A program made the position numbers and the translations under genes. A DNA stretch of 64,000 bases from Candidatus Peribacter sp. (GTDB taxonomy: Bacteria > Patescibacteriota > Gracilibacteria > Peribacterales > Peribacteraceae): positions 1,496 to 65,495 of the forward strand of contig JAUSKD010000030.1 of the NCBI GenBank assembly GCA_030647195.1, given 5' to 3'. Below, in pieces: positions 1 to 63,584 of the stretch (the stretch's first letter is position 1; every line of letters begins with the position of its first letter). The notes beneath the pieces are model-generated. The model worked only from the letters and a program-made list of their open reading frames with translations. It ran no database searches and was not told where the DNA came from.

Positions 1-541
1 AGCATGCGCGCAGACATCGCTTGGTCTGACCACCCTCGTCAGCGGGTCGCCCGATATCGTACGGAAGGCAGTACGTAGTGCACTGGCTCTCGACATAGGG
101 ACATTGATTCGAGGTGGGGGAGTCAGGGGTCTGTGTTTGCCCGCCGTACCCACCGGTATTTCCCTGGCACTCGCTCCATGTCACACAGGTCTTGCCATAC
201 TCCACCTTCGTCTGCACGCCGCCATTCGTTTGGATGATTGAAATCCGCCGGCACCGGTACCCCAAAGAGGCTGAATCATATGCGCATGCATTGGAGGTGG
301 CGGTGGATACGGCCCCGGGCGAAGAGGATGCCGGGTTCGCGGGATACGAGGGGATGGCGAGGGAAGATTTCTGTGCGGAGGGGAAGCCGGGAGATTGTTT
401 TAGCGATGGCGAGAACCAGCTTTGACCGAGTAGAAAGGCTGAGTCTCTTCCATCTTTTCCTTCCGCGAACAGGGCAGCCCCTTCGATCAGAACGATCAGG
501 AGCACAAGTCCCATAATCCACCCTCTTTCAAACCGTGTCAT
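1..541 (-). CDS. Cys-rich protein with N-terminal TM/signal anchor; runs off the left window edge
   Basis: Not in the ORF track. Manual translation: MTRFERGWIMGLVLLIVLIEGAALFAEG..., Ser/Pro-rich linker, then 9 Cys (ACAY, YRCR, TCVTWSECQG, QCPYVESQCTTYCLP, RCLRAC); open to position 1. TATAAA lies 8 nt upstream of the ATG. Confidence 0.75.
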   Translation of the reverse strand, partial: MTRFERGWIMGLVLLIVLIEGAALFAEGKDGRDSAFLLGQSWFSPSLKQSPGFPSAQKSSLAIPSYPANPASSSPGAVSTATSNACAYDSASLGYRCRRISIIQTNGGVQTKVEYGKTCVTWSECQGNTGGYGGQTQTPDSPTSNQCPYVESQCTTYCLPYDIGRPADEGGQTKRCLRAC

Positions 542-608
542 GGTATGCATTTATACCCTCCTGCCATGACCCGGGCAAGATTCGGCCGTTGGCAGGATTG
601 TCCCAATG

Positions 609-1826
609 TCATTCAAACCGCATCGCCTCGATGGGGTGCAGCTTCGCGGCGCGGCGCGCGGGGTAGAGCCCGAAGATGAGGCCCGTACCCATGGCCATGC
701 CGAGTGAGAGCAGCACCGAGCTGATCGTGAGTGCGAACGAGAGGTTCCCCAGGAATTTTGCCGCGAGGCGGGTGAGCAGGAACCCGAGGAAGCCGCCGCC
801 CACGATGCCGATCAGTCCTCCGAGCATGGTGAGGGCCACGGCCTCGATGAGGAACTGCAGCAGGATGTCCTTTCGGCTGGCGCCGACCGCCTTGCGCAGG
901 CCGATTTCCTTCGTTCGTTCCGAAACGGACACGAGCATGATATTCATGATGCCGATGCCGCCGACGATCAGCGAAATCCCGGCGATGAGACCGAGGAAGA
1001 TGGTAATGGAGAGGGTGACGGTCCCGATGATCGCCGTTGCCTGGGCGAAGGAGCGCGCAATGAAATCATCCTTGTCCGGGTCATCCTTGGGGTTCTCGAT
1101 GTTGTGACGCTGACGCAGGAGAGACTTGATGTCTTCGGACGCAAGGTCGACGTTGCCTGCGGCCTGCAGGGAAATATAGTCGACGTATTGGCCCTTGCTC
1201 GTCATTGTTTTTGCAACGGTGAACGGGATGTAGATGGGCGTATCCATCTGGGCGCCCAGCGCCCCGCCCAGCGCCTTGAGCACACCGACCACGGTGAATT
1301 TCCGCTCACCGACACTGATGCGCTTGCCCAGGGGATCGGCGTTGCCAAAGAGATCCTCGGCCGTCTTGCTGCTCAGCACGGCTACGCTCTGGCCGCCTTT
1401 CACGTCGCCATCCGTCAGCAGCCGTCCGCGGTCGAGCTTCATGGACCAGTTCGTAAAAATCTCCTTGTATGTCCCGAGGAGCATGGGGCTCAATTCTTCC
1501 GATCCATACTTCACCTTCTGGGCGACGAATATGACGGCAGCCACATTCTTGACCGTCGAGAGCTTGGCGAGAGCCTCCGCATCCGCTTCGGTGAGCGTAT
1601 TGGTTTCCTTGCCGAACTGCTCCAGGCCTTTTGCCTGGATTTCGAAGGTCGCGCCGCTGAAGGTGCTCACCTGATCCAGGATGAACCGTTGGAATGTCGC
1701 GCCAAGCGACACCATCAGCACGACTGACCCTACGCCGATGATGATGCCGAGTGTCGTCAGGAGGGACCGCGAGATGTTTCGCGTGAGTCCTTCGAGGGCC
1801 GATCGCAGGGTGTCTTGAGTGCGCAT
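609..1826 (-). CDS. MacB/FtsX-family ABC transporter permease
   Basis: RSLLTTLGIIIGVGSVV N-terminus; GGIGIMNIMLVSVSERTKEIGLRKAVGA; C-terminal YPARRAAKLHPIEAMRFE. Confidence 0.93.
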   Translation of the reverse strand: MRTQDTLRSALEGLTRNISRSLLTTLGIIIGVGSVVLMVSLGATFQRFILDQVSTFSGATFEIQAKGLEQFGKETNTLTEADAEALAKLSTVKNVAAVIFVAQKVKYGSEELSPMLLGTYKEIFTNWSMKLDRGRLLTDGDVKGGQSVAVLSSKTAEDLFGNADPLGKRISVGERKFTVVGVLKALGGALGAQMDTPIYIPFTVAKTMTSKGQYVDYISLQAAGNVDLASEDIKSLLRQRHNIENPKDDPDKDDFIARSFAQATAIIGTVTLSITIFLGLIAGISLIVGGIGIMNIMLVSVSERTKEIGLRKAVGASRKDILLQFLIEAVALTMLGGLIGIVGGGFLGFLLTRLAAKFLGNLSFALTISSVLLSLGMAMGTGLIFGLYPARRAAKLHPIEAMRFE

Positions 1827-1833
1827 AGGTACC

Positions 1834-1857
1834 GCGGCGAAGCGGAGCGAAGACGGG
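1834..1857 (-). repeat. Short REP-like palindromic element (CCCGYCTTCG...CTWCG type)
   Basis: Minus strand cccgtcttcgctccgcttcgccgc fills the gap between the two permeases and resembles the element at 10870-10920. Confidence 0.4.
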
Positions 1858-3096: not shown

Positions 3097-3103
3097 GATT
3101 GTG

Positions 3104-3850: not shown

Positions 3851-3867
3851 GGGGCGGATTTTTGAGC

Positions 3868-5646: not shown

Positions 5647-5832
5647 AGCTCTGTCCTATAATTATACCATATAACAATATATTTGTTTTGCATTTTCCGA
5701 GGAATTTGTGATGGAAAGAGTACTTTCCATCCTTTTCAGCTATTGGCGAATTACGGTAAATAGGAAGGATATTTCGCGCTTTGTCGGGGGTTCTCTCCCC
5801 CGTTTCCATCCCGTAGACTCCCCTGTACCCCC

Positions 5833-7224: not shown

Positions 7225-7235
7225 AAAGCGGGTGT

Positions 7236-7264
7236 TTGATCATTTCAATATTATATGTTATAAT
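7236..7264 (+). promoter_or_regulatory. Sigma70 promoter directly upstream of a start codon
   Basis: TTGATC-17 nt-TATAAT with a TG extension; ATG at 7271 is 6 nt downstream. Confidence 0.75.
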
Positions 7265-7270
7265 ATGCCT

Positions 7271-7591
7271 ATGTCTGATGAAGGATTGCTCAGGGCCAGT
7301 ACCGTCGGCAGGACGCCGGACATGAAATTGATCGTCGATAAAGAGTTCAATGTGCTCATCGATCGCAACCATGTGGTGGCGGATACCATCCTCGCCATGG
7401 GCCATAAGGCGAGCAAGGCGATCGGGGATGTATTGAACCGGGAGGATAAGCGATGGACGGATCTCGTCGATGTGCCGGACAAAGATATCTCGATACTCCA
7501 GAGGGCCGGTGAGGCACTGGCGTCCAATGAGGTCGGATCACCCGAGTGGAAGGAGGCAAAAACGAAGCTGCTGGGCTTATTGGATGCCTAG
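7271..7591 (+). CDS. Hypothetical protein (~106 aa)
   Basis: Clean ORF MSDEGLLRAS... directly after a near-consensus promoter. Confidence 0.65.
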   Translation: MSDEGLLRASTVGRTPDMKLIVDKEFNVLIDRNHVVADTILAMGHKASKAIGDVLNREDKRWTDLVDVPDKDISILQRAGEALASNEVGSPEWKEAKTKLLGLLDA

Positions 7592-8412: not shown

Positions 8413-8484
8413 GCTATTGTGGGGGAGGGAACAAAAGCGATAGTAGACCATAAATTCATTTATGCAATTATTCTCTTCTGTCTT

Positions 8485-9282: not shown

Positions 9283-9656
9283 TTCTGTGAGAAGGCGGGC
9301 AGGTAGGAGGTATCGAGCGGCTCCGGTGGCTTATATTGAAAGTATTCAGTGCGATAGATATATTCCCCATTGGGGCGAGGATTTTTACTGGGCATCATCA
9401 GCAGGACGCCGATTGCCTCGTGTAGCTCCTGATGGAATGAGACAAAATCATAGAGCTGTTGCAGCTTTGGCAGCACGAATTCCACCTCTTCCCCATCGAT
9501 GATTTCGAAAACACTCGTTCGGCCTTCGAGAATCTGGGCGACGATTGTCTCGTGCAGGTCGCTCATAAATGTGCGCATTTCCTGCACGCGGATTTTGCAG
9601 TTTCCCGAAGGCAGTGATTCTCCATCTCCGTCCGGAAGTTCGTCGAGGGCCTGCAT
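9279..9656 (-). CDS. Hypothetical protein
   Basis: 125-aa ORF preceded by TTGACC-17-TATAAG, 6 nt from the ATG. Confidence 0.6.
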   Translation of the reverse strand: MQALDELPDGDGESLPSGNCKIRVQEMRTFMSDLHETIVAQILEGRTSVFEIIDGEEVEFVLPKLQQLYDFVSFHQELHEAIGVLLMMPSKNPRPNGEYIYRTEYFQYKPPEPLDTSYLPAFSQN

Positions 9657-9752
9657 AGGGGACTTATAGGAGGGGGAGACTTTGGGGTCAATGCTCTGAA
9701 TGACGCAGTGGCCAGATATTGTAATTAAATGTATTCATGGTATAATACCAGT

Positions 9753-10205
9753 ATGGCTGATCGATTCTTCTCACAGGAAGGGCTGCGGACCTCCATCAAT
9801 CGTGATGCGGATGCCAATCGTATCGTTTCGAGAATCAATGGCGTGCAGAACGCCCTGTTTCGCGAGGACCGTGATCCAAAGCTAGAGATGCCCGTCCCTG
9901 CCGTATTGTATGCCTCCGTGTCTGCGCTTATTGCCGAGATGACACAAGAAGCATCCGGCAGAGGCGACACTGCCTGGCTGGGTGATATGGAACAGGTCCT
10001 CCAGTTCGTCGTGCCGATCTACGCACGGGACCCGAAGGAGGCTCTCGATATGCTTCTCTTCGCGCTGCGCAGTTCGTGGCGGCAGTCAGAGGCGATGAAC
10101 GGGCGCGGGAAAGCGGTATCGCAAGGAGTCGGCGCGATCACGGGGAAAGTGCGGGGAGCACTCGGGAATTTGGAACAATGGCTGAAGAAGCAGATGGGGC
10201 AGTGA
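9753..10205 (+). CDS. Hypothetical protein
   Basis: MADRFFSQEG... starts 6 nt after TGGTATAAT (9738-9746). Confidence 0.65.
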   Translation: MADRFFSQEGLRTSINRDADANRIVSRINGVQNALFREDRDPKLEMPVPAVLYASVSALIAEMTQEASGRGDTAWLGDMEQVLQFVVPIYARDPKEALDMLLFALRSSWRQSEAMNGRGKAVSQGVGAITGKVRGALGNLEQWLKKQMGQ

Positions 10206-10252
10206 GGTGCACTATCAGACCTGCGCGAACAGCACTCTTTTTCGCGCGCCAG

Positions 10253-10648
10253 TTATTTCTCATCGTGACGCGTGCGCACATAGCGCGCCGGCAACAGTAA
10301 GTCATCGATGATGACCGTATGCGTTTTTTGGGGCTGCTCCACGTCTTCGGGGCAGTGAAGCCAGACTTTCAGGAGCAGGTTGCCAGTGGGGTATGCATCT
10401 TTGCATCCAATATCCGCCATGCCGAGAATGGTCTGGGCGGTCGGAGCTTTGAACGCGCACAGTGTTCCCTTTATGCGTTCACGGATAAAATCGCTTGTCA
10501 TGTGCACGCCGCGCTCCGTTTCCTCCTGTTCCTGCCGTTCCCTTTGCGTGATCAAATACCCTGCCATGAGTAGACGTTCCACTTCCGTACGGTGTTCCGG
10601 TAACGGCTCGAGATAGTTGCCTCTCAGGTAGAGCGGAGCGAGTGCCAT
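10253..10648 (-). CDS. Hypothetical protein
   Basis: 131-aa ORF; TACATT 9 nt upstream of the ATG. Confidence 0.5.
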   Translation of the reverse strand: MALAPLYLRGNYLEPLPEHRTEVERLLMAGYLITQRERQEQEETERGVHMTSDFIRERIKGTLCAFKAPTAQTILGMADIGCKDAYPTGNLLLKVWLHCPEDVEQPQKTHTVIIDDLLLPARYVRTRHDEK

Positions 10649-10718
10649 TGGAGGGACAATGTACTCTCTTTGTGAAGATGATCTCTATTTTCTCTTATCC
10701 GCCCGACAAGTTTCTTTC

Positions 10719-11071: not shown

Positions 11072-11074
11072 AAA

Positions 11075-11099
11075 TCACACCATTGCAGAGTAGAGAAGT
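11075..11099 (-). other. 3' arm of the 16S precursor processing stem
   Basis: tcacaccattgcagagtagagaagt is the reverse complement (24/25) of 12766-12790. Confidence 0.8.
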
Positions 11100-11205
11100 C
11101 TTCTAGGTGGTGACCCCAGAGGGATCACGGGTGCTCTCCTAGGCAATCGAAGGGCATGATGGTCAATTGAGCACGACCAGCGCATGCGCCAGAGATATTC
11201 CCTGG

Positions 11206-12670
<1,465 letters not shown>

Positions 12671-12957: not shown

Positions 12958-12993
12958 GGAATTTTGCAGCTCTTCAGGGAAAATGATGAAATT

Positions 12994-13821
12994 TCATATG
13001 GTCACCCATGGTCGCCCCTTGGGATCGGCCGGATGTCCTTTCCCCGGAATGCCCTTATACGCTGCCGGATGGAAGATTTGTGCAAAGGAGGGCGGGGAGA
13101 AATTTCCGGGGACGAGGGGAGCCGACACAAAGAATGCATTGACCCCGCACCGGTCCGTTGCGACGAGTGTGTAGCCCTTTTCCCTGCCAAGCTTCTCGAG
13201 TGCACGCAGACTCGCGCCCTGATAATCCGATCCGTCCCATCGGAATGCAGAGTCGTACGGGATCGTCACGCTCGCATCCGGTCCTTTGTTCGCGTTGTAT
13301 TCCATAATCACCACGCGCGGATGGAAATGTGTGATCGCCTTCCAGACCCAGTAATCGTTGCCGTCGATATCGATCGAGAGCAGGTCGAATTCCGGCGGCA
13401 CGCCGTACTTTTGCAGGAGCAGTTCGATGTTCTCGGCCGTGACGAATTCCTGCCGGACTCCGTTCTCGTCCGGCCACTTTCCTCCGTCCATAAGCAATCC
13501 TTTCCAGCCCTTGTGCTTGAGCAGGTAGCGGCAGTTGCATTGCAGTCCGTCTTCAACGCCGAACTCCACAAAGGAGCGGTTGGTCGTGCCGATCTTCGCG
13601 AAGATCGCGGCGATGATTCCATCCTCCCCGTTCTGCGAGTACTCGCGTCGTTCAATGAAAGGAATACGCCTTTGAAAGAGCGCAAGGTCGCGCAGGGGTT
13701 GATGGGTCCAGCAGAGCCACTTCAGCGTCACATGTGCGTGGAACCAGCCCTTCAGCCAGTCGAAGGATTTACGGGCGCGTTTGCGGATGCGGATCAGGAA
13801 GCGGGAGAGAATGCTTAGCAT
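12994..13821 (-). CDS. FkbM-like SAM-dependent methyltransferase
   Basis: YSQNGEDGII, FVEFGVEDG, DLLSIDIDGNDYWVW, GASLRAL motifs. Confidence 0.7.
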   Translation of the reverse strand: MLSILSRFLIRIRKRARKSFDWLKGWFHAHVTLKWLCWTHQPLRDLALFQRRIPFIERREYSQNGEDGIIAAIFAKIGTTNRSFVEFGVEDGLQCNCRYLLKHKGWKGLLMDGGKWPDENGVRQEFVTAENIELLLQKYGVPPEFDLLSIDIDGNDYWVWKAITHFHPRVVIMEYNANKGPDASVTIPYDSAFRWDGSDYQGASLRALEKLGREKGYTLVATDRCGVNAFFVSAPLVPGNFSPPSFAQIFHPAAYKGIPGKGHPADPKGRPWVTI

Positions 13822-13849
13822 GTGTCGCGTATGGTACTACGATAGCGCC

Positions 13850-14983
13850 GTGCGCGTCTGTGTCCTGATGCCGTTTCTGGATGTTTACAAAGGAGGCAAC
13901 CACCTCCCGCTCTTTGCATCACTCCCGGATGTGCAGTTCACCGTGCTCACGAGCAGAGTGCTCCCGCCCGATGCCCCTCTTCCCGCGAATGTGCGGGTGA
14001 TTGAGCTCCATGCACGATTGGGCTCTTACTACTTCGGGTTCGCGGACCGGCGATTTGCGCGCGCGGTGCTGCGGACCTATCCGGTCGGTCATTCTTTCTG
14101 GAAAGATTTTGATGTTCTTCATCTGAACCAGGTTCTCGGGCCGCAGTTTCGCTTTCTGACGAAGACCGGCGTTCCCATCCTCTATGCCATTCACCATCCT
14201 GTCACCGCCGATAGGGAAGTAGCGATGGCGGAGACCGTTTCGTGCGAACGCATGCTCTGGCGTGCCAAGTATTTCTTTCCGGTTCGTTGGCAGAGGCAAC
14301 TGTGTCGGTCGCTTCCGCATGTCATGACGGTTTCAGAGACCGTGTGCGACCGTCTGGTACGGGATTTCGGCATTCCGCCGGCGAAAATTTCCATCGTGCG
14401 AAACGGGGTGGACGGCGAACGTTTCGCTTTCGCAGGCGACCTGACTCCGGAATTCGACGTGATCGCGGTCGGGTCCTTTCTGCATCCGCGCAAAGGATTC
14501 CCTTACCTCTTCAAGGTGTACGAAGCGCTCGCGGCACAGGGCATTCGCATCGCCGACGTGGGCAAGCGGTCGCCCGCTCAACGCTCCCAACTCGAAAAAC
14601 TCAAAGGCGTAAAGCTTTTCGGCACGGTGCCGGATGACAAGATCACGGCGCTCATTCAGCGTTCCTCCATGCTCCTCTCCACCTCGCTCTACGAAGGATT
14701 CGGCCTCTCGCTCATCGAGGCACTGGCCTGCGGTCGTCCCGCATTCGCGTTCGATGCCGGGGCGGTGGCTGAAGTCCTTTCGCCCGTTGATCCCTCGCTC
14801 GTCGTTCCGCTTCGGGATTGCGACGCTCTCGTGCGCCGCGTGCGGGAGTTTCTCGCTCTTTCTCCCGAAGAACGTCGCCAGCGTGGCGGCCGGTACAGAG
14901 AAGAGGTGCTGAAGCGCTATTCCCTCCATGCATCGGCTGATGCGCTGAGGGGGGTGTATGCGCGGCTCTGCGGGAATGCATGA
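13850..14983 (+). CDS. Glycosyltransferase family 4
   Basis: RKG, SLYEGFGLSLIEALACGRP (EX7E); GTG start 6 nt after TACGAT. Confidence 0.9.
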   Translation: MRVCVLMPFLDVYKGGNHLPLFASLPDVQFTVLTSRVLPPDAPLPANVRVIELHARLGSYYFGFADRRFARAVLRTYPVGHSFWKDFDVLHLNQVLGPQFRFLTKTGVPILYAIHHPVTADREVAMAETVSCERMLWRAKYFFPVRWQRQLCRSLPHVMTVSETVCDRLVRDFGIPPAKISIVRNGVDGERFAFAGDLTPEFDVIAVGSFLHPRKGFPYLFKVYEALAAQGIRIADVGKRSPAQRSQLEKLKGVKLFGTVPDDKITALIQRSSMLLSTSLYEGFGLSLIEALACGRPAFAFDAGAVAEVLSPVDPSLVVPLRDCDALVRRVREFLALSPEERRQRGGRYREEVLKRYSLHASADALRGVYARLCGNA

Positions 14984-15036: not shown

Positions 15037-15098
15037 CCGTGGGGTTTTCTCCGTGACGATTCTTGTGATCACACTGCCCTTCCGGTAGCTTTACGGGG

Positions 15099-21056: not shown

Positions 21057-21092
21057 CGACTTTGATCATACCGAACAGCTGTACTCATTCAA

Positions 21093-26939: not shown

Positions 26940-27063
26940 AGCGGGGAGAATATCACAGTCCTGGCATTTTTTGCGTAAAATCCCGTGTTTTGCATGTGCG
27001 GAATGGCTGTTTTCTGCCCTATTTGTCTGTATCGTTGCACTGGATTTTTCCTCTCCCAACCAC

Positions 27064-29734: not shown

Positions 29735-29753
29735 TTTCCCTTCTTTGATCTCC

Positions 29754-34900: not shown

Positions 34901-34941
34901 AGGACATAGTTTATTGAAAAACGTGCCAAAGGGTTATAGAT

Positions 34942-37786: not shown

Positions 37787-37828
37787 ACGTTCGCATCATC
37801 CATGGCGTTTGGGCTATCGTGTCCTCTG

Positions 37829-38962: not shown

Positions 38963-38966
38963 ATCC

Positions 38967-40022: not shown

Positions 40023-40072
40023 GGCTGGCCATCTCGTTGTTTTCTGAATGAGAGATTGTAGAATCTCATAAC

Positions 40073-47907: not shown

Positions 47908-48073
47908 GCGGAAAATATACAGGATGAACACAGCGACCACAATGAATGCCGTTGAGAATCTGGGCTATTCTTTGCGTTCCATTGGCAAAATCAGACCATG
48001 GATTGCCTCTCTGAAAACCCTGTTCATTCACACAGATTTTCCCTCACAGCGCTTCCAGCCGTGTACAATGAGC

Positions 48074-50538: not shown

Positions 50539-51521
50539 AGAACCTGCTTCTCGATTTCGATGGGACGTTGATCGCGGACAACGGGGGGTTGGCGTACGAC
50601 CCGGCAACGGTGATATTGCTTCCCGGCGTCGTGGAGGGACTGAAGCGTTTCCGTGATATCGGCGTGCGCTTCTTCATTGTCACGAATCAGTCCAAGATCA
50701 GCCGGGGAATCTGTACGGAAGCAGATGTGGTCGCCTGCATTGATCGCGTGACTCATTTGCTCAAAGAGGAGGGTATTACCATCGAGGGAGCGCAGTGGTG
50801 TCCGCACCGTTCGGAAGATGCGTGTGACTGTCGCAAGCCCAAAACCGGGATGTGGAAGGCGCTCCAGCGGCGCTTTTCTGATCTCAGGGCGTCTGAAACC
50901 GTCATCGTGGGCGACTCGGACAGGGATATTGAGCTCGGCCAGGCGATCGGCTGCACGACCGCGCGCATCCTCTCGTCACTGTACCCGCGGACCGTGGCGG
51001 CCGAGTACCTCGTACGGTCAATGAATGAGCTGGCCGACATCCTCCTCGCCCCGGCAGACCGGCTGTACCAGTTTCACGAAGTGGTGGAATTTGCAGAGGG
51101 CATTCATGCGCAGGGGCATTCCATCGTCACGACCAACGGCGCATTCGATCTCTTTCATGCGGGGCACCGGTATGTGATCGACGAGGCGCACAAGCACGGG
51201 GATTTTCTCGTCGTCGGGATCAACAGCGATGCCTCGGTGCGCAGGGCGAAAGGCGAAGGGCGCCCGATACAGAATGAGGAAACCCGTGCGCGCATGGTTG
51301 CCCGGTTTGCGGATGCCGTTTTCATCTTTGATGACGATGATCCGCGGCTGTGGCTGCCCAAGATCAAGCCGCAGGCGCACGTGAATGCGGCAACCTATGG
51401 CGAGCAGTGCGTCGAACGACCGGTCTTGGACCAGATCGGGGCGAAACTCGTCCTCGTTCCCGTGAAAAAGGAGCTGGGTTCCACGACGCAATTCCTCTCT
51501 GACTCACTTTCCTCCCGCTGA
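50535..51521 (+). CDS. Fusion: GmhB-type heptose bisphosphate phosphatase + heptose-1-P nucleotidyltransferase (RfaE domain II)
   Basis: DFDGTL, TNQS, CPH..CDCRKP, VGDSDRD; then TNGAFDLFHAGH, GINSDASVRRAKGEGRP, STT. Confidence 0.88.
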   Translation: MKNLLLDFDGTLIADNGGLAYDPATVILLPGVVEGLKRFRDIGVRFFIVTNQSKISRGICTEADVVACIDRVTHLLKEEGITIEGAQWCPHRSEDACDCRKPKTGMWKALQRRFSDLRASETVIVGDSDRDIELGQAIGCTTARILSSLYPRTVAAEYLVRSMNELADILLAPADRLYQFHEVVEFAEGIHAQGHSIVTTNGAFDLFHAGHRYVIDEAHKHGDFLVVGINSDASVRRAKGEGRPIQNEETRARMVARFADAVFIFDDDDPRLWLPKIKPQAHVNAATYGEQCVERPVLDQIGAKLVLVPVKKELGSTTQFLSDSLSSR

Positions 51522-52663
51522 TGCTCCGTGCGCTCCTCCTTGGCACGCTCACCACGCTCGCACTCCCGTGGCTGCTGCTTGCGGCGTGGCTGCGTTCGCG
51601 TTCTTCAGCACTGCAGCGCAAGGTCCTCGTCGTCCAGGCGGCGAAAATCGGCGATGTCGTCTGCATGACGCCGCTCTTTCGGTCTCTTCACGATCACGGG
51701 GACCACGTGACGGTGCTGTGTCTGAGGCGCACGGGTGAAGTGCTCACTCATCATCCTTGCGTGGATGCGATGATCCACATCGATGATCCGATGTTCCGGG
51801 GGCTTTCTGGAGCATTTCGTCTCTGGCGGGAGTTCTTTTGTGGGCGGTTCGATGTGAGCATGGTTCTGTTTCCCGCATCTTCACTCAGCATGATGGGGCT
51901 GTGGTCGGCGTCGCCGGTGCGGATCTACACACGGGGAAGGATGATGAGCCTGATGGAGCGGTGGTTCCGTCTTTTCTACACACATCGGATCCACTACCGC
52001 AGGCACACGCGGACATTCGATCATTACATGTTCCTTGCAGGGCTCATCGGGGTGAAGCCGGTTGCTTACCGGCACGAGATTTTTCTGACCGATGCCGAAG
52101 AGCAGTTCGCATTTTCCTGGATTCAGGATCACGGCGTGCGCGCAGATCAGCGTTTTGCGGCGATTTCGCTCCGTGCCGGCAATGCGCTCAAAGAATGGCC
52201 AATCGAACGGTTCGTGGCTGTGGCGCGGCATATCATTGATCGGCATTCCCTGCATGTGGTTTTCCTCGATTTGGATCAACGGGTCACAGACCATGCGCTC
52301 GCGCTCCTCGCCGATCCTTCACATGCATCCGGGGGTTGCCGTCTTTCCCTCCGCCACCTTGCCGCGATCATCAAGCGGGCATCCCTCTTCGTTTCGGTGG
52401 ATACCGGGCCGCTCTACATGGCCCATGCGTTCGGTGTGCCGCTCGTGGATATCATCGGGCCGGTGGATCCCGAGGAACAGCCGCCTCCTGCCGGCGAGCG
52501 CGTGGAGCTCGTTCTGCCGCCGCCCCCATGCGAGCCGAGTTCCTTCGTAGCCGATACGCTGCGTGCACCGACGGCGGCTCAGCAGGCTGCGCTGGAGGGC
52601 ACGACGGTCGGCATGGTCACAGATGCGATCGATGCAGTACTTCATTCTTCCGCCGCGTCATGA
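51521..52663 (+). CDS. Glycosyltransferase family 9 (heptosyltransferase-like) with N-terminal TM
   Basis: KIGDVVC, KEWP, SVDTGPLYMAHA, IIGP. Confidence 0.85.
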   Translation: MLRALLLGTLTTLALPWLLLAAWLRSRSSALQRKVLVVQAAKIGDVVCMTPLFRSLHDHGDHVTVLCLRRTGEVLTHHPCVDAMIHIDDPMFRGLSGAFRLWREFFCGRFDVSMVLFPASSLSMMGLWSASPVRIYTRGRMMSLMERWFRLFYTHRIHYRRHTRTFDHYMFLAGLIGVKPVAYRHEIFLTDAEEQFAFSWIQDHGVRADQRFAAISLRAGNALKEWPIERFVAVARHIIDRHSLHVVFLDLDQRVTDHALALLADPSHASGGCRLSLRHLAAIIKRASLFVSVDTGPLYMAHAFGVPLVDIIGPVDPEEQPPPAGERVELVLPPPPCEPSSFVADTLRAPTAAQQAALEGTTVGMVTDAIDAVLHSSAAS

Positions 52664-53574: not shown

Positions 53575-53630
53575 TTTCCCCCCTCTGCGTTGGGTTCTCC
53601 TCTATTGCTTGCTATGCTGGGCTGGTGGGC

Positions 53631-54522: not shown

Positions 54523-55782
54523 TTACAGAGCTTTATATCTCATTCCATTCCCTTCAATCTCTTTCCTCGGCAGCAGTGTTTTGAGATCGTAGACGAGGCC
54601 TCCTGCCTTCAGTGCCTGGGTGAGGTCATCGGCCATGTACTCCCGGTGCGGCACCAGCAGCACCACGGCATCATAGGGGCCGGACTTTAGTGACCCCGGC
54701 TTCCATCCTTTCCTGATCATGATTTCTTCGGGCATGTAGGGATCGTGGACTTCCACAACGCAGCCAAGTTTGGTGAGGTGCTTCACCACGTCACCGGATT
54801 TGCTGTTGCGGGTATCGGGAATGTTTTCTTTGAAGGTCAGGCCCAGCACGAGCACGCGCGGGTTCTTTGTTCCCTTCAATTCCTCGCCCACCTGCTCAGC
54901 CACATGGCGGCTCATGGAGTCATTCAGGGCGCGTCCCGCGGTGATGACCTGCGTTTCCATCCCCAACTGGCGCGCTTTCTCGACCAGGTAGTACGGGTCC
55001 ACGCCGATGCAGTGCCCGCCCACAAGACCCGGAACAAATTTGAGGAAATTCCACTTCGTTGCGGCCGCATCGATCACGTCTTTCGTCTCGATGCCGACCT
55101 TGTGGCAGAGGAGGGCGATTTCGTTGATGAAGGCGATGTTGAGGTCCCGCTGCGCGTTCTCGATGGCCTTGGCCATTTCGGCCACCTTGATATTCGCGGC
55201 GCGGTGGATGCCCGCCTCGATCACCGATCCATACAGGTCAGCCAGCGCATCCAGTGTTTCCGCGTCCTGCCCCGAGACAATCTTCTTGATCTTCTCGATC
55301 GTGTGCTCCTTGTCCCCGGGGTTCACGCGCTCGGGCGAGTAGCCCAGTTTGAAATCCGTGCCACACTTCATGCCCGATTCCTTCTCCAGGATGGGGCCGC
55401 AAATTTCTTCCGTGGTGCCCGGCCACACCGTGGATTCATACACGATGATGGCCCCTTTCTTCATGTGCTTGCCGACCGTAGAGCTGGCGCTTTCCACGGG
55501 CGTGAGATCGGGATTGTTCTTCTCATCCACGGGTGTGGGGATGGCAAGGATCACGATATCCGCCTCATGGATGACCGCGGGGTCGGCGCTGTAGAGAATC
55601 GTCACTGCCTTCAACTGCTGCTGCGAAAGCTCCCGCGTGCGGTCATGCCCGGTGTTGAGCTCCGCGATGCGCTCCGCATTGAGATCATATCCCCGCACGT
55701 CGTAGCCTTTCCTCGCAAAGATGTACGCAAGCGGCAGGCCCACATACCCGAGTCCCACGATGCAAATCACCGGTTTTTTCAT
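54523..55782 (-). CDS. UDP-HexNAc 6-dehydrogenase (TviB/WbpO-like)
   Basis: VGLGYVGLPLA, YESTVWPG, YSPER, PGLVGGHCIGVDPYY, GLTFKEN; start MKKPVIC. Confidence 0.9.
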   Translation of the reverse strand: MKKPVICIVGLGYVGLPLAYIFARKGYDVRGYDLNAERIAELNTGHDRTRELSQQQLKAVTILYSADPAVIHEADIVILAIPTPVDEKNNPDLTPVESASSTVGKHMKKGAIIVYESTVWPGTTEEICGPILEKESGMKCGTDFKLGYSPERVNPGDKEHTIEKIKKIVSGQDAETLDALADLYGSVIEAGIHRAANIKVAEMAKAIENAQRDLNIAFINEIALLCHKVGIETKDVIDAAATKWNFLKFVPGLVGGHCIGVDPYYLVEKARQLGMETQVITAGRALNDSMSRHVAEQVGEELKGTKNPRVLVLGLTFKENIPDTRNSKSGDVVKHLTKLGCVVEVHDPYMPEEIMIRKGWKPGSLKSGPYDAVVLLVPHREYMADDLTQALKAGGLVYDLKTLLPRKEIEGNGMRYKAL

Positions 55783-55802
55783 CACAGGGAAGTGTAGACG
55801 AA

Positions 55803-55836: not shown

Positions 55837-55879
55837 TTCACCGTGGTCTTGGGGTATTTCCAATGGTACCGTAGGCGGG

Positions 55880-56305
55880 ATGCAACGGTTTCGTCACTGG
55901 ATTTTCGGCCCTGCGCGCTCCACCCGGGTGCAATTCTTCCGGTATTTCTGGGTGGGCGGGATTTCGACGGTGGTCGATTTCGCCGTGTTCATTTTCTTCG
56001 TGCGCGTGCTCGGCATCCATTACCTCCTTGCCCAGTTTTTCGCCTACTGCGCCGGCTTCGTCACGAATTATATTCTTTCGGTTCTTTGGGTTTTTCAGAA
56101 AACGAACCAGATCGTGCGCGAGATCACTGTGGTCTTCATCATTACCATGTTCGGGCTCCTCTGGACCGAGCTTCTGCTCTACCTCTTCGTCGATACCTTC
56201 TTCTTTGGGGAGGTGAAGGCAAAGGTGATTGCCACCATTATCGTGCTCTTCTGGAATTTCGGTGCGAGGCGATTCATTGTCTACAGGAATCCGTCCAGGG
56301 CCTAG
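55880..56305 (+). CDS. GtrA-family protein
   Basis: QFFRYFWVGGISTVVD, four TMs, FWNF. Confidence 0.88.
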   Translation: MQRFRHWIFGPARSTRVQFFRYFWVGGISTVVDFAVFIFFVRVLGIHYLLAQFFAYCAGFVTNYILSVLWVFQKTNQIVREITVVFIITMFGLLWTELLLYLFVDTFFFGEVKAKVIATIIVLFWNFGARRFIVYRNPSRA

Positions 56306-56337
56306 GCTCTGCGGATGAATATGAGTAGAGTACGGGC

Positions 56338-57975
56338 GTGTCAAAAGTTGCCATTATCGCAGGTGCCGGGCCGGCGGGTCTGACAGCGGCATACGAGCTC
56401 CTGAAGCGCACGGATATCCGTCCCATTGTGTGCGAGCTCAGCGACGTCATCGGTGGCATTGCCCAGACGTACAACTACAAAGGCAATCGCATTGACCTCG
56501 GAGGCCACCGCTTCTTTTCGAAGAGCAAGCGCATCATGCAGTGGTGGTTCAATATTCTTCCGCTGCAGGGCAAACCTTCGGCGGATACGGCCGAAAAGAA
56601 GCACGAGATCGATTACGCGGCGGAGGCGATCGTCAATTTTCTCTGTCCTGCGTGCACAAATGACGGCGCGACAAACACTCAGCGAACATTTCCTGCCCCC
56701 GATCCCGAAAAAGACGACCAGGTCATGCTCCAGCGGCCGCGCCTCAGCCGCATCTACCACCGCAGGCATTTTTTTCCGTATCCCATCTCGATCACACTCG
56801 GGGTCGCCATGCGATTGGGGGTGCTCAATACGTTCCTGATCGGTCTGAGCTACATCAAGGCGCGGATGTTCCGGCTGAAGGACGAAACCTACCTCGATGC
56901 ATTTTTCATCAATCGTTTCGGGCGACGCCTCTACGAGACATTCTTCCGGGATTACACCGAGAAAGTCTGGGGGATTCCCTGCAGCCAGATACGGGCGGAC
57001 TGGGGGGCCCAGCGCGTGCAGGGGTTGTCGCTTCGGCGCGCCGTGGTCCATGCCGTAAAAGACCTTTTGAGCTCCGATTTCAAAAAGGCCCAGCAGGAGC
57101 GCGAAACCACGCTCATCACGCGCTTCTATTACCCCAAGTACGGACCCGGGCAGATGTGGGAAACCGTTGCAGCGCAGGTGCGTTCCTGTGGTGGCGAGGT
57201 GCGCATGCATACGCGTGTTTCGGGAGTGCACCTGACGGACGGCCGCGTCACCTCCGTCACACTCGAAAACACCCAGACGGGAGCAGAGGAAACGTTGCCT
57301 TGCGACTTCTTCTTCTCCTCCATGCCGATCAAGCATCTTGCGGGCATGATGACGCCCCATCCTCCCGCGCGGGTTACCGAGGTGGCTGAGGGCTTGCCGT
57401 ACCGCGATTTCATCACCATCGGGCTCCTTTTGAAGAAACTTCATGTGCAGGACGGCAGGCACGTCGATGCGTCCGTACCGGATAACTGGATCTACATTCA
57501 GGAGGGCGGGGTCAAGGTGGGGCGTGTGCAGATCTTCAACAACTGGAGTCCGTATCTGGTGAACGACCGCAAGAATACCGTGTGGATCGGGCTCGAGTAC
57601 TTCGTAAACGAGGGCGGTGATTTGTGGATCAAGCCCGATCAGGAACTGATTCAATTCGGAATCACGGAGATGGAGAAGATCCACTTCCTCAAGAGCGAAG
57701 ATGTGCTCGATGCCTGCGTGCTTCGGATCCCCAAGGCGTATCCGGCGTACTTCGGCAGCTACGACCAGCTCCACGTGGTGCGCGAATTCGTCCAGAACAT
57801 TCCCAATCTCTACCTGATTGGCAGAAATGGCATGCACCGTTACAACAATCAGGATCACAGCATGCTTACGTCGATGACGGCGGTGGATAACATCGTCGCG
57901 GGCCGCACGGATTCCTCAAATGTGTGGGAGGTGAATCTGGAAATGGTCTACCACGAGGAGCACAAGAAATCTTAG
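56338..57975 (+). CDS. FAD-dependent oxidoreductase (UDP-galactopyranose mutase / protoporphyrinogen oxidase-like family)
   Basis: [42 protein letters not shown]. Confidence 0.85.
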
Positions 57976-60278: not shown

Positions 60279-60326
60279 TGAAGAAATCGCTGACACCAAC
60301 AGTTCCCAATCGCTACACTGCCCCCG

Positions 60327-61316
60327 ATGTTATCGCTCGTGATTCCCACGTACAACGAGGCGGAGAGCCTGCCGATGCTGCTCCCACGACTACAGGGGGC
60401 GCTCAAAGGCATTCCGCACGAAATCATCATCGTCGATGACGATTCCCCCGATGGAACATGGCACAAAGCGGAGGAATTGCAGGCGTTCTACCCCACGCTC
60501 CGCGTCATCCGGCGTCGCGGCGAGCGCGGGCTCTCGTCGGCGGTCGTTGCGGGATTCAGGGCGGCGCGCGGCGAGATTCTGGCCGTGATGGACGCTGACG
60601 GTCAGCATGATGCGGGGCTCCTGAAGAAACTCGTGGAAACCGTGCAAGTGCGACGTGGTGTTGCGGTGGCTTCGCGCTACATTCCCGGCGGAAGCACGGG
60701 TCAGTGGAACCGTCGGCGCACACTCTTCAGCCGTGCGGGAACCCGCGTCACCACTCTGCTCTGCCGTCTGTCCGTTCGCGATCCCATGAGCGGGTTCTTC
60801 GCCATCGATCGCCCGCTCTTCGAGCGGATCTCACCCCACTTGCATCCACGGGGATTCAAAATCCTGTTTGATCTTCTCATGCGGCTTCCGCGCGGGACCC
60901 CGGTGACGGAAGTTCCGTACACATTTGCGCCCCGCGCGGTCGGCACGAGCAAATTGTCACTCAAAGTGCAGTGGGAGTTCATCTTCTCGCTCTTCTCGCT
61001 CCTTTTCGAGCGATGGGCACGGGCTGCATGGGTGTTGTTTCTGCTCCTCTTCATCGGCCTTGGAGTATTCCTCTCCGTGCGTGCGTGGGAATTAAAACTT
61101 CTGGTCCTCGATGCAGAGGTGCGAGAACGGACCAAGATGGCGTTTGAATCTCTTTCGAATACGGAGGGATGGCTGATTTCCGATCTCTCGCTGCGTTCCG
61201 TCAGTGCCACGAGCCTTACGATGATTTACCGTCCGCACGGACGCGGCGACGCGCCTGCCAAGTGCATCCGCGTTAATCTTGATTTCTTCGGCTGGTCACC
61301 ATGCGACGCTTCGTAA
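60327..61316 (+). CDS. Polyprenol-phosphate mannose synthase-like GT2 with C-terminal TM and extension
   Basis: PTYNE, DDDSPDGT, RGLSSA, MDADGQH, DPMSGFF, GFKIL. Confidence 0.88.
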   Translation: MLSLVIPTYNEAESLPMLLPRLQGALKGIPHEIIIVDDDSPDGTWHKAEELQAFYPTLRVIRRRGERGLSSAVVAGFRAARGEILAVMDADGQHDAGLLKKLVETVQVRRGVAVASRYIPGGSTGQWNRRRTLFSRAGTRVTTLLCRLSVRDPMSGFFAIDRPLFERISPHLHPRGFKILFDLLMRLPRGTPVTEVPYTFAPRAVGTSKLSLKVQWEFIFSLFSLLFERWARAAWVLFLLLFIGLGVFLSVRAWELKLLVLDAEVRERTKMAFESLSNTEGWLISDLSLRSVSATSLTMIYRPHGRGDAPAKCIRVNLDFFGWSPCDAS

Positions 61317-62533
61317 ATCCCTTCTTCGGCCTCGTGCTCCTCGGCATCGCGCTTGCCGCCCTCCATGCATGGCAGGGCATCACCACGGATGAGGCGAAGT
61401 ATCTGCTCAATATTCCCTATCCGCATCCGCCACTTGCGCGCGGCATCATCGGGTTCACGCAGTGGATTCCCGGTCAGGAGATGCTCTGGCGTGTCATCCT
61501 TGCGATTATTCTTCTTCTTGCAGCGGAGCTGGCCCGCGCTTTTGCGCCTGCACGCGAGAAGGCATCGACATTCCTACTCGCAGGGCTCTGGGTACTGTCG
61601 GCGTCGGTGTTCGTCTCTGCGGGACAGATCCTGCTCGCCCCCATCACCGCAGTTGAGATGCTCGTGTTCTGCTACTGGTATCTCAAATGTGAGGATCAGC
61701 CCGCCCGTACCGATCCACAGTACGGATCGGGCGGGGAGCGCATGGTCGGGTGGATGGCGCTGCTGTGGATGGCGTCGCTCTTCACGGCTTACCACGCCAT
61801 TCTGTTCCTTCCGGTGGTTGCGGCGGTGTTCTGGCGCCTGCGGCTGAGCCGATGGCAGCGTCTGGTTGCGCTGTGCGGACCCGTTCTGCTGCTCGCGCTC
61901 TATACGGCAATGAACCCTCTCGCCTTTGCGAGCATGGTCACCGCGAGCGGGCAGAATCTGGGCGACGGTTCCCCGCTGACGGCACTGCGCGAAACTGTCT
62001 GGCTCTGGGTACTCGGAGGGAGCCTTGTCCTGAGCGTGCTCGGAACGATAGGGATGTTCGCCTCGCGCAAGTGGCCGCTCATTCTGAGCCTCCTGCTTGT
62101 CGCCGGATTCACGTTCCTCTCGTTCCGTCCGTACTACGGCATCCTCTTCGCGCCGCTTCTGATCGCAGGTCTCGTCTCGTCGCCTTCGCTCATGCGAAGA
62201 GTGGGGACGATCCTGCTCTTGACTCTCGTCTGTGCCCTGATGCTCATTCCACTATCCTTTCCGTCGGGCAGTCCATCGCCGGTTCCAGGTGTTTATGCGG
62301 CCGTGGAGCAAGCCGGTATCCCTGCAGGGGTGACGGCGATCATCGCCGGTCCCTTCGGACACGAGTGGCAGTACGGCCCTTACATTGTGCGGCGGATGGT
62401 GGGGAATCCCCAGCTCCTCGATTCCGCACGCGTGGCCGTGTGTCTGGTCGATTGTCCGGTACTCCGCGGACGGGAGGGATGGGAAGAGCTCCAGGGTGTT
62501 CCTGTGGAGGTTTGGGTGAGACCGTTACGATGA
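61301..62533 (+). CDS. Multi-TM putative GT-C glycosyltransferase
   Basis: TM1 followed by TDEAKY..HPPL, many TMs; overlaps the GT2 gene. Confidence 0.65.
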   Translation: MRRFVNPFFGLVLLGIALAALHAWQGITTDEAKYLLNIPYPHPPLARGIIGFTQWIPGQEMLWRVILAIILLLAAELARAFAPAREKASTFLLAGLWVLSASVFVSAGQILLAPITAVEMLVFCYWYLKCEDQPARTDPQYGSGGERMVGWMALLWMASLFTAYHAILFLPVVAAVFWRLRLSRWQRLVALCGPVLLLALYTAMNPLAFASMVTASGQNLGDGSPLTALRETVWLWVLGGSLVLSVLGTIGMFASRKWPLILSLLLVAGFTFLSFRPYYGILFAPLLIAGLVSSPSLMRRVGTILLLTLVCALMLIPLSFPSGSPSPVPGVYAAVEQAGIPAGVTAIIAGPFGHEWQYGPYIVRRMVGNPQLLDSARVAVCLVDCPVLRGREGWEELQGVPVEVWVRPLR

Positions 62534-62612
62534 AGGGGTAAGGGGTAGGTATCATGGGGGAAGGGTTTTTAAAAAGAGATCCCTTATCCCTTCATACGTA
62601 TCCCTTATCCCT
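62533..62612. repeat. Inverted heptamer repeat arms
   Basis: aaggggt x2 ... atccctt x2 ... atccctt atccct between convergent genes. Confidence 0.6.
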
Positions 62613-63558
62613 ACAGACCGTAGTACTTCCGGTACCACTCGACGAACTGTGGCACGCCGTCCTTGATCTGCGTCTTCGGTTGAAACCCGAGCATCTTCTT
62701 TGCCTTCGAGATATCCGCCTCGGTGCGCACGACGTCGCCCGGCTGCATATCCATGAGGTTCTTCTTCGCCTCTCTGCCACAAGCTTTCTCGATCGCTGCG
62801 ACGTAATCCATCAGCTCTTCGGTCCTTCCGCAGCCCAGGTTGAAGACCTCTTCAGGATAATTTTTGTCGATCGAGGCGACAATGCCATCCACGATGTCGT
62901 TGATGAAGGTGAAATCCCGTTGCATCTTGCCGTGTCCGAAGATATCGAGCGGCTGACCGTGGAGGATTTTGTCCGTGAACAGGAAGAGCGCCATATCGGG
63001 CCTGCCCCACGGTCCGTACACGGTGAAGAACCGCAGCCCCGTCACGGGGATGCCGTACAGCGAGTGGTACGCGTGTGCCATCAGCTCGTTGTCCTTCTTG
63101 TTCATGCCATAGAGCGAGAGCTGGTTATCCGTCCGGTCCGTCTCGGCGAGCGGCATCTTGGTATTGCCGCCGTAGACGGAGCTCGAAGAGGCATAGATCA
63201 GGCCGGGAATTTTCTGGAGCCTCACTTCATCAAGAACGTTGAAGAAGCCGCGGATGTTGATATCGATGTACTCGTCCGGATGATCGAAGGCGTAGCGCAC
63301 GCCGGCGAGTGCGGCCAGATGACATACGCGATCGCAGCCTTTCATCGCCTTTTCCACGGTCTTGCGGTCGCAGATGTCGCCGCGAATCAGGGTGAATTTT
63401 TTGTCCTTGATCAACTGCGCGTTGCGGTCCTCCTTCAGCTTGGGATCGTAGTAGGGATTGAAGTTATCCAGCCCCACTACTTCGTCCCCGCGGGCGAGGA
63501 GCACCTGAGCCGTGTGGAATCCGATGAAGCCGGCAGAGCCGGTAAGGAGGATGCGCAT
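62611..63558 (-). CDS. UDP-glucuronate 4-epimerase-like enzyme
   Basis: TGSAGFIG, HLAALAGVRY, YASSSSVYG, LRFFTVYGPWGRPDMA, MQPGDV. Confidence 0.9.
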   Translation of the reverse strand: MRILLTGSAGFIGFHTAQVLLARGDEVVGLDNFNPYYDPKLKEDRNAQLIKDKKFTLIRGDICDRKTVEKAMKGCDRVCHLAALAGVRYAFDHPDEYIDINIRGFFNVLDEVRLQKIPGLIYASSSSVYGGNTKMPLAETDRTDNQLSLYGMNKKDNELMAHAYHSLYGIPVTGLRFFTVYGPWGRPDMALFLFTDKILHGQPLDIFGHGKMQRDFTFINDIVDGIVASIDKNYPEEVFNLGCGRTEELMDYVAAIEKACGREAKKNLMDMQPGDVVRTEADISKAKKMLGFQPKTQIKDGVPQFVEWYRKYYGL

Positions 63559-63584
63559 GACGGCAGTGTATCAATACAGCACGT

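Follow-up and report, generated by a model that had tools for sequence, protein, structure and literature searches.

Group C of the GeneMarkS-2 classification comprises Actinobacteria (M. tuberculosis) and Deinococcus-Thermus, in which a Pribnow box is described 6-8 nucleotides (nt) before the first genes of 25-50 % of operons (PMC6028130). Group B, mostly Bacteroidota and the Fibrobacteres-Chlorobi-Bacteroidetes (FCB) group, is described in the same paper as having one motif unrelated to the Shine-Dalgarno (SD) sequence before first and internal genes, which is hence no promoter. The archaeal group D (e.g. haloarchaea) has many leaderless first genes, and some archaeal lineages have lost the anti-SD (PMC6028130, PMC10783764). 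For Candidatus (Ca.) Peribacter riflensis, a 16S rRNA without CCUCC and the lack of an upstream SD signal have already been published (Estrada, Garciarrubio, Merino 2024, PMC10783764). In this study a 64,000-nt stretch of DNA, called the window below, from a member of the same family, Candidatus Peribacter sp. (Peribacteraceae, Peregrinibacteria; assembly GCA_030647195.1, contig JAUSKD010000030.1), was analysed together with the genome it belongs to (G000) and with related genomes. The analysis concerns -10 boxes of the form TANNNT that stand 6-9 nt before start codons, which an initial annotation of the window had read as leaderless gene starts, and a pyrimidine-rich element with a TTCC core that precedes other genes. 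We consider it very probable that these are leaderless promoters and a non-SD pyrimidine element in a bacterium of the Peribacteraceae that has given up the SD sequence.

Like group C, the genome has the box at a gap of 6-9 nt before about 30-38 % of its divergent genes and at background level before genes overlapping an upstream one (5/74). Ribosomal protein bS21 (PF01165) was not found in G000, which is 98.6 % complete, and the same search also missed it in the Thermus, Deinococcus and Corynebacterium controls, as well as in Thermotoga. The remaining genes of group C use SD sequences, whereas here SD use was not detected, the anti-SD is mutated and the pyrimidine element is found in that position; the lineage also differs from those described for group C in PMC6028130, as it belongs to the candidate phyla radiation (CPR). 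Ca. Peribacter riflensis and G000 share the 16S tail without CCUCC and the missing upstream SD signal, and the two features by which Estrada et al. (2024) define their class iv, a CCUCC-less tail and no excess of tail-complementary words upstream, are both found in G000. Archaeal group D is similar in its many leaderless first genes and in the anti-SD loss of some lineages, but its box lies ~26 nt upstream and is of the TATA/BRE (B recognition element) type, unlike the bacterial sigma-70 -10/-35 elements seen here. The likeness to group B would be partial: the TTCC element precedes both divergent (84/386) and overlapping (28/74) genes, but it accounts for only about a third of the genes without a box. 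The group B motif is A-rich, unlike the element described here, which is pyrimidine-rich and occurs alongside a large leaderless class. Our verdict is that this would be a bacterial leaderless architecture of the group C type, in a lineage new to it and accompanied by a non-SD element.

The window corresponds to C14:1496-65495 in a 1.354-Mb genome of 57 contigs and ~58 % GC (2.18 % contamination). Genes were called with a self-trained dicodon finder that takes the start with the best coding score and is blind to the upstream sequence ("motif-blind" starts); 1071 genes were obtained, covering 77 % of the genome. This home-made finder is incomplete, and missing genes blur the context classes (divergent, overlapping) used below. 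A homology-defined start was the most upstream codon aligned with the start codon of an ortholog (in G006, G009 or G012), downstream of every upstream stop. Besides G000, six related genomes were used, with 340-400 kb sampled from each.

The positional peak of the box is seen without any gene calls. When all 11,843 genomic TANNNT hexamers were followed to the starts of open reading frames (ORFs) of at least 100 amino acids (aa), gaps 6, 7, 8 and 9 held 230, 195, 160 and 155 starts, compared to 83-183 per gap at the remaining gaps in the range 0-40. The more stringent TANANT gave 87, 54, 57 and 56 starts at the same gaps and 10-34 at the others, and with four control patterns of like composition there was no peak, just the 3-nt periodicity of coding sequence. 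At the motif-blind starts, 104, 48, 51 and 46 genes had TANNNT at gap 6, 7, 8 and 9, respectively (9.8, 4.5, 5.0 and 4.6 %), i.e. 249/1059 together, while the background was 0.5-2.5 % per position at other gaps and 0.1-0.5 % for in-frame start codons inside genes (n = 19,147); against an expectation of 5.4 %, the 249 genes give a binomial p of 2e-86. The initial annotation had assumed a chance rate of a few percent; the rate expected for this pattern at gap 6-9 is ~5 %. The check proposed there, enrichment upstream of homology-defined starts throughout the genome, was also run: the box was at gap 6-9 in 126/455 of them (27.7 %, compared to 4.9 % per four positions elsewhere) and in 24.2 % (4.0 % elsewhere) of those backed by another genus. 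The genome-wide peak on which that annotation had made its reading depend is thus present, at gap 6-9. In the window alone, 11/57 motif-blind starts had the box (p = 2e-4), and E. coli K-12 (50 kb, identical pipeline) showed no TANNNT peak.

Some starts of the initial annotation had been picked using the motif, and 7 of its 19 starts differ from the motif-blind ones. In addition, a hexamer at gap 6 or 9 has its first triplet in the reading frame of the ORF. The peak might hence be thought to come from the way starts were chosen, from base composition or from TAA/TAG stops in frame upstream of the ORFs. This we regard as hardly conceivable, as the motif-first test is free of start choice and the motif-blind and homology-defined starts peak alike. 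Furthermore, the in-frame gaps 3, 12 and 15 are without excess, hexamers beginning with TAA or TAG make up only 24 %, decoy gaps give 3-8 %, E. coli has no peak and the peak recurs in G012 at 48 % GC.

Several features that had not been selected for identify the box as part of a promoter. With the 249 sites aligned on the hexamer, T (.51), T (.45) and G (.35) were enriched at a 17-nt spacer, corresponding to a -35 element, and an extended -10 was seen with G (.53) two bases before the hexamer and T (.35) ahead of this G. The commonest hexamers were TACACT, TATACT and TACAAT, the consensus being TGnTAyAmT. The box also depends on gene context: it was found before 108/386 divergent genes compared to 5/74 genes overlapping an upstream same-strand gene (p = 3e-5), before 18/87 same-strand genes spaced 1-25 nt, and before 0/27 genes for ribosomal proteins, elongation factors (EF) and RpoA. 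Homology-defined starts with a box were ATG, GTG and TTG in 101, 21 and 1 cases and those without in 237, 78 and 21 cases (p =.013). The near-exclusion of TTG starts behind the box is consistent with transcription starting on a purine which also serves as the first codon base, and the 21/123 GTG starts agree with the proposal that such starts are included.

In orthologs from G006 (same genus, median protein identity 78 %) the box was conserved for 51/64 box genes compared to 6/177 others. The corresponding values were 25/38 and 14/110 in G009 (another genus, 48 % identity; p = 1e-9) and 37/50 and 18/131 in G012 (p = 2e-14). Decoy gaps gave 1-5 hits in the orthologs. The box is kept though its flanks diverge. 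The -35 TTG, the extended G, the dependence on context, the near-absence of TTG starts and the conservation all agree with the initial annotation, which had taken the boxes for sigma-70 -10 elements, and the view that they are real sigma-70-type promoters at leaderless distance is well supported.

A different reading of the box would be that of an AT-rich non-SD translation signal in longer 5' untranslated regions, as in group B, with transcription starting further upstream. As SD is missing, another signal must exist, and the box lies at the distance typical of a ribosome binding site; promoter boxes and ribosome binding sites share 6-8 nt in M. tuberculosis, as described in PMC6028130. However, such a signal would precede operon-internal genes too, where the box is at background and where the pyrimidine-rich element fills the role instead. 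The unselected -35 TTG at 17 nt and the extended -10 G are promoter features and only 1/123 starts behind the box is TTG, which makes this reading quite improbable.

The sites in the window are listed below, where nats are the coding-score shortfall against the motif-blind best start.

539..555, minus strand: TATAAA at 550-555, gap 8, ATG 541; TTG at 17-nt spacer; not TANNNT; gene outside the gene set
7259..7273, plus strand: TATAAT at 7259-7264, gap 6, ATG 7271; 1.1 nats below best start 7286 (TTG)
9654..9668, minus strand: TATAAG at 9663-9668, gap 6, ATG 9656; -35 TTGACC at spacer 17; equals motif-blind start; not TANNNT
9741..9755, plus strand: TATAAT at 9741-9746, gap 6, ATG 9753; equals motif-blind start
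10646..10663, minus strand: TACATT at 10658-10663, gap 9, ATG 10648; equals motif-blind start
13819..13836, minus strand: TACCAT at 13831-13836, gap 9, ATG 13821; equals motif-blind start
13838..13852, plus strand: TACGAT at 13838-13843, gap 6, GTG 13850; 1.6 nats below best start 13811
15086..15101, plus strand: TAGCTT at 15086-15091, gap 7, ATG 15099; TTG at spacer 17; equals motif-blind start
21054..21070, minus strand: TATGAT at 21065-21070, gap 8, ATG 21056; TTG at spacer 16; equals motif-blind start
26937..26952, minus strand: TATTCT at 26947-26952, gap 7, ATG 26939; Pfam domain Polysacc_synt_2 begins at residue 9
34898..34913, minus strand: TAAACT at 34908-34913, gap 7, GTG 34900; 0.5 nats below best start 34891
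37815..37831, plus strand: TATCGT at 37815-37820, gap 8, ATG 37829; DegT domain begins at residue 11
40059..40075, plus strand: TAGAAT at 40059-40064, gap 8, ATG 40073; TTG at spacer 16; 3.2 nats below best start 40157
47905..47919, minus strand: TATATT at 47914-47919, gap 6, GTG 47907; TTG at spacer 17; 5.8 nats below best start; TPP_enzyme_N position 2 at residue 2
53613..53627, plus strand: TANNNT, gap 6, GTG 53625; additional site, absent from the initial annotation; equals motif-blind start
55780..55796, minus strand: TACACT at 55791-55796, gap 8, ATG 55782; GTG 55785 directly upstream
55867..55882, plus strand: TACCGT at 55867-55872, gap 7, ATG 55880; 5.0 nats below best start 55928; position of GtrA domain indecisive
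56326..56340, plus strand: TAGAGT at 56326-56331, gap 6, GTG 56338; equals motif-blind and conserved start; box before GTG in the G009 ortholog
60314..60329, plus strand: TACACT at 60314-60319, gap 7, ATG 60327; equals motif-blind and conserved start; Glycos_transf_2 from residue 3
63556..63570, minus strand: TACACT at 63565-63570, gap 6, ATG 63558; equals motif-blind and conserved start; Epimerase domain from residue 3

All 19 hexamers of the initial annotation are found at the gap given there, and the ATG or GTG behind each of them starts an ORF 106-737 aa long. Two of the hexamers, TATAAA (541, minus strand) and TATAAG (9656, minus strand), do not match TANNNT. The choice of start stood in 11/19 cases, where it equals the motif-blind start; seven alternatives are 0.5-5.8 nats worse and one (541) is outside the gene set. 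Several -35 boxes of the TTG type had also been claimed, and TTG is indeed present 16-18 nt upstream in 8/19 sites, with G two bases before the hexamer in 10/19. That the motif corrects over-long ORF starts is plausible for 47907, 26939 and 37829, where the shorter forms have their Pfam domain start between residues 2 and 11, and was left undecided for 55880; domain positions back the starts 60327 and 63558 as well. At 13831-13843, TACCAT (for 13821, minus strand) and TACGAT (for 13850, plus strand) are one base apart within a 28-nt divergent intergenic region, and two leaderless promoters would stand back to back here if both starts are correct.

The initial annotation had assigned the box to most genes that head a transcription unit, which is an overstatement. 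Genome-wide, 28-31 % of divergent genes have the box at the motif-blind or homology-defined start. When all candidate starts scoring at most 3 nats below the best coding start were admitted, 134/352 divergent genes (38 %) had one, compared to 18-40 of 352 (~8.5 %) in five decoy gap windows with the same tolerance; the net excess is about 30 % of divergent genes and did not grow under looser tolerance. In a mixture model, 51 % of divergent genes had TGnTAnnnT no further than 40 nt away, and in 116/352 (33 %) it stood at gap 5-10. The net share over all genes is ~24 %. In the window, 9 of the 16 divergent genes have TANNNT at 6-9 nt when the starts of the initial annotation are used (10 with TATAAG) and only 4 with motif-blind starts; the chosen starts 13850, 34900, 47907, 55782 and 55880 lie 0.5-5.8 nats below the best coding score. 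The analysis supports the leaderless promoter as what would be the commonest single first-gene architecture, at about one third of first genes.

Among the relatives, the box at gap 6-9 was distributed as follows.

G006, same genus, GC 0.58: TANNNT at gap 6-9 in 20.3 % of 316 genes
G009, same family, GC 0.60: TANNNT at gap 6-9 in 23.6 % of 367 genes
G012, same family, GC 0.48: TANNNT at gap 6-9 in 34.3 % of 350 genes
G019, another family, GC 0.44: TANNNT 5.9 % at gap 6 and 10.0 % at gap 7, of 271 genes
G014, another family, GC 0.46: TANNNT only 5.4 % at gap 6 against 2-4 % background, of 331 genes
G015, another family, GC 0.48: TANNNT flat at 2.0-2.6 %

The leaderless peak is family-wide in the four Peribacteraceae sampled, and it is no general trait of the CPR or of the class. 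The wording of the initial annotation, "this CPR organism", holds for this organism and does not generalize, as G015, one of the three other families, has no peak.

The claimed absence of SD motifs was confirmed. In G000 the SD words GGAG, GAGG or AGGA occur near the start of 9.9 % of 1043 genes and forty bases further up in 13.9 %, and GGAGG near 16 and far from 18 of the same genes. Five-mers complementary to the genome's own 16S tail were also without excess (6.2 % of genes near, 8.1 % far). No SD enrichment was found in G006, G009, G012, G014 and G019 either, nor in G015 (26 near and 33 far of 302), and the absence of SD is thus common to all seven genomes sampled. With E. coli K-12 as control for the same pipeline, 36/59 genes had SD words near the start and 3 in the far window. 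The initial annotation overlooked two further signals, the pyrimidine element at leadered or operon-internal genes and the mutated anti-SD of the 16S rRNA gene in the same window, for which the features are as follows.

11206..12670, minus strand: 16S rRNA gene; 3' tail CACTTCCTTA at 11215-11206; anti-SD core CTTCC (11213-11209), not CCTCC
11198..11202, minus strand: GGGAA in the 16S 3' trailer; complements tail UUCCU; relatives with CUCCU have GGGAG

The 16S tail reads ...GGAUGGAACACUUCCUUA, with an anti-SD core CUUCC in place of CCUCC, and the tail CACUUCCUUA is common to G000 and five congeners, i.e. to all six genomes of the genus having the 16S 3' end. In the relatives the anti-SD is CAUCUCCUUA in G012, CCGCC in G019 and CCUCU in G018. 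CCUCC is kept in G009, which belongs to the same family, yet SD use is lacking and the leaderless peak is present there. The tail covaries with a short 3' complement: UUCCU with GGGAA in the genus, CUCCU with GGGAG in G009 and G012, and in the distant relatives GCCU with AGGC (G019) and CCUCU with AGAGG (G018). This covariation across relatives suggests that a conserved pre-rRNA hairpin masks the 16S tail. In the window (10649-13000 region) the 16S gene, the only one there, has no 23S, 5S or tRNA gene alongside, and protein genes lie on both sides. The 16S match was broken into several pieces in G011, G012, G020, G004 and G008, as expected with rRNA-gene insertions.

The words that do mark the starts of genes without a box are pyrimidine-rich. 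TTCCC was found 130 times near these starts and 37 times far from them, TCCCC 115 and 31 times, and TTCCCC 65 and 11 times, and CCCC started at -13, -12 and -11 in 30, 39 and 46 of 782 genes, compared to ~5 elsewhere. A mixture model gave nTTCC[C/T][C/T][C/T] with the TT and CC positions at 0.83-0.92 and TTCC starting at -15/-14, and estimated the element in a fraction of 0.30-0.39 of the 763 G000 genes without a box. In G006 the element was also recovered de novo from a random seed, as TTCCCCC at -14. An unseeded motif search with a zero-order background yielded unpositioned purine-rich, coding-like words (GAAGAA, GGAAGGAT), which were discarded as heterogeneity between coding and non-coding sequence, and a motif-first test of pyrimidine words gave only modest excesses, swamped by in-frame internal starts. 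The element is found before 28/74 overlapping genes (8/74 in a control window), 31/87 genes 1-25 nt downstream of another and 84/386 divergent genes. Among 121 operon-internal genes, 50 occurrences of TTCC begin between -21 and -11, compared to 15 in the 19 positions between -48 and -30 (p = 3e-11). Orthologs conserve it, with 37/45 compared to 15/126 in G006 and 13/20 compared to 6/76 in G009. Five instances in the window are listed here.

27048..27066, plus strand: pyrimidine element TTCCTCTCCC at 27048-27057, GTG 27064; divergent gene without a -10 box at 6-9
29736..29756, plus strand: pyrimidine element TTCCCTTCTTT at 29736-29746, ATG 29754; operon-internal
34959..34977, plus strand: pyrimidine element TTCCTTTCTTT at 34959-34969, TTG 34975; divergent gene without a -10 box
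38952..38969, plus strand: pyrimidine element TTCCCTC at 38952-38958, ATG 38967; operon-internal
51509..51523, plus strand: pyrimidine element TTCCTCC at 51509-51515, ATG 51521; start overlaps upstream stop

For 27 conserved genes (ribosomal proteins, EF-Tu, EF-G, RpoA, SecY) the starts were fixed by alignment to E. coli N-termini. None of them appears leaderless, and 13 have the element in the strict window (tuf, fusA, rpoA and 10 ribosomal-protein genes), the other spacers being mostly pyrimidine runs in a slightly shifted register. The intercistronic spacers of a ribosomal-protein operon outside the window, on contig C49, consist of long stretches of pyrimidines with hardly any G, in which units like TTCCCT and ATCCCT recur, e.g. 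before rplF, rpsN, rpsS and rplO.

It could be argued that TTCC is an alternative-sigma promoter element at leaderless distance and no mRNA signal, since it lies at -15 to -9, the same place as the leaderless -10 hexamer. The genome has five sigma-70-family genes, and close same-strand genes can own a -10 box (18/87 at gaps of 1-25 nt). We find this reading unlikely. The element is commonest at overlapping genes, where ordinary -10 boxes are at background, and it fills the intercistronic spacers of the C49 operon. Moreover, of 104 genes that carry TTCCYYY, 30 show a normal TANNNT located 8-12 nt before the TTCC (p = 2e-12); the element would then be transcribed and stand first in a leader 16-25 nt long. 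These observations point to the TTCC element as an mRNA signal rather than a promoter element.

The more serious alternative, though still the less likely one, is that the pyrimidine tracts are G-poor unstructured spacers without a sequence-specific signal, selected for single-stranded starts in a ribosome that does without SD. The lower-GC relatives show T- or CT-rich tracts and not TTCC (CTTCTTCT in G012, TTTCTC in G014, TTTTTC in G015), an rRNA complement was not found, and the ribosomal-protein spacers are often long pyrimidine runs of variable register. In the genus, however, the occupancy of the TT and CC positions, with a sharp position at -16 to -14, exceeds what composition alone gives.

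The mechanism that we favour has two parts. At box genes, a sigma-70 promoter (-35 TTG, 17-nt spacer, extended -10 G, TAyAmT) would have transcription begin on the A or G that opens the start codon or no more than about 3 nt away from it, and such leaderless mRNAs would be read by direct recognition of the 5'-terminal AUG or GUG. In many leadered and operon-internal genes, the short transcribed leader or the intercistronic spacer would instead contain a pyrimidine element poor in G. This element is most likely an SD-independent, single-stranded landing site for the ribosome and is probably bound by a four-domain S1; in G000 a 488-aa frame codes for an S1 homolog that has four S1 domains, and IF3 is present. 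S1 prefers single-stranded pyrimidine-rich RNA. Because of this preference, and of the T-/CT-rich upstream words in the lower-GC relatives, an unstructured landing site bound by S1 is our preferred reading.

Pairing was considered in several forms. In an "inverted" SD interaction, the ribosome would recognize the UUCC-core element ~8 nt from the start through a partner such as the trailer GGGAA, the mRNA mimicking the old anti-SD. In its favour, TTCCC is the top upstream 5-mer of the genus and the exact complement of GGGAA; against it, the complementarity is at most 5 nt, and G012 and G009 show no clean covariation, so that we give this idea little credence. A mature 16S ending in ...CUUCCUUA would rule out pairing with the trailer, while an end keeping CCAGGGAA would make the inverted pairing worth considering. 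Pairing of UUCC with the GGAA of the tail (GGAACAC), of 4 bp only, was rejected as unsupported, and its geometry is judged to be wrong for the structure of the ribosome. Covariation of the element with anti-SD or trailer variants is not supported: with the same GGGAG trailer, the top 5-mer in G009 is CTCCC, but G012 has TCCCC/TTCCCC like the genus. G019 (anti-SD CCGCC) was no use as a further test, as it has neither GGCGG nor a pyrimidine core, just A/T-rich words.

Several points weigh against leaderless promoters combined with a pyrimidine landing site. The computations show how the sequence is organized, with what statistics, in which gene contexts and how far orthologs conserve it, and from these we infer the transcription starts, the mode of translation and the partner of the element. 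Two thirds of divergent genes lack a box at leaderless distance, and gaps of 7-9 nt could mean leaders of 1-3 nt instead of none. The home-made finder recovered 31/43 annotated starts in the 50 kb of E. coli K-12, and coding-score and homology-defined starts coincide in only 252/459 genes. G006, G009 and G012 are kin, and the conservation p-values therefore overstate their independence. As to the element, its conservation is weak in G012 (6/19 compared to 9/94, p =.02), in G009 and G012 its changes do not clearly follow those of the anti-SD or trailer, the five sigma-70-family genes make the gene content compatible with an alternative promoter, and a search of the 16S rRNA for an exposed complement of TTCCYCC gave matches only in helices, variable loops and the trailer GGGAA. 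Seven RNA-labelled sequencing runs contained at most 0.12 of the sampled words each; four of them, placed on window positions 1-20000, gave short contigs with conserved 16S parts only, from many organisms, which are evidence neither way.

The positioned pyrimidine element is the new part of the finding. The accessible text of PMC10783764 contains no promoter-distance analysis for Peribacter and no mention of "pyrimidine", and in that of the 2016 Peribacter genome paper the terms promoter, start codon and ribosome binding are absent. Nanosynbacter lyticus is the sole CPR species in the accessible part of a 2025 survey of mapped transcription start sites. No report was found of leaderless promoters or of a pyrimidine upstream element in Peribacteria or other CPR bacteria, the supplementary tables of PMC6028130 and PMC10783764 lying outside the search, and on pyrimidine-rich, S1-linked, leaderless initiation nothing genome-wide was found. 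The architecture would extend the leaderless lifestyle to a CPR lineage with a reduced translation apparatus, and offers a natural case in which SD loss, a drifting anti-SD, leaderless promoters and a substitute element can be studied jointly across genera. The ortholog-conserved TTCC is a concrete, mutable candidate for initiation at the internal cistrons of SD-less bacteria. Starts in these genomes will be misassigned by gene finders that rely on SD, and in the window this looks like the reason for several wrong, over-long ORF starts. The promoter-distance rule together with the pyrimidine element would provide a better start model for the Peribacteraceae.

Some further observations were made in the course of the work. 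On contig C1 of G015, TGA ends just 23/302 called genes (TAA 193, TAG 86), and this class-level relative may read TGA differently. Within G000, contigs C4, C44, C22, C45, C21 and C2 have a GC content of 0.535-0.55 compared to ~0.58 elsewhere and could be islands, mobile DNA or binning contamination. No tRNA genes were found across the window, which holds, besides its single 16S rRNA gene, a MacB-type ABC (ATP-binding cassette) system, SUF genes and a long cluster for sugar and nonulosonic-acid biosynthesis. This sugar-modification region, at 19578-63558, contains two NeuB paralogs (21093-22184, minus strand; 34975-36018, plus strand), two DegT-type aminotransferases, two Polysacc_synt_2 dehydratases, a PglD-like acetyltransferase, cytidylyltransferases, two HisF/HisH-like pairs and many epimerases and glycosyltransferases, and looks like a set of duplicated nonulosonic-acid pathways.

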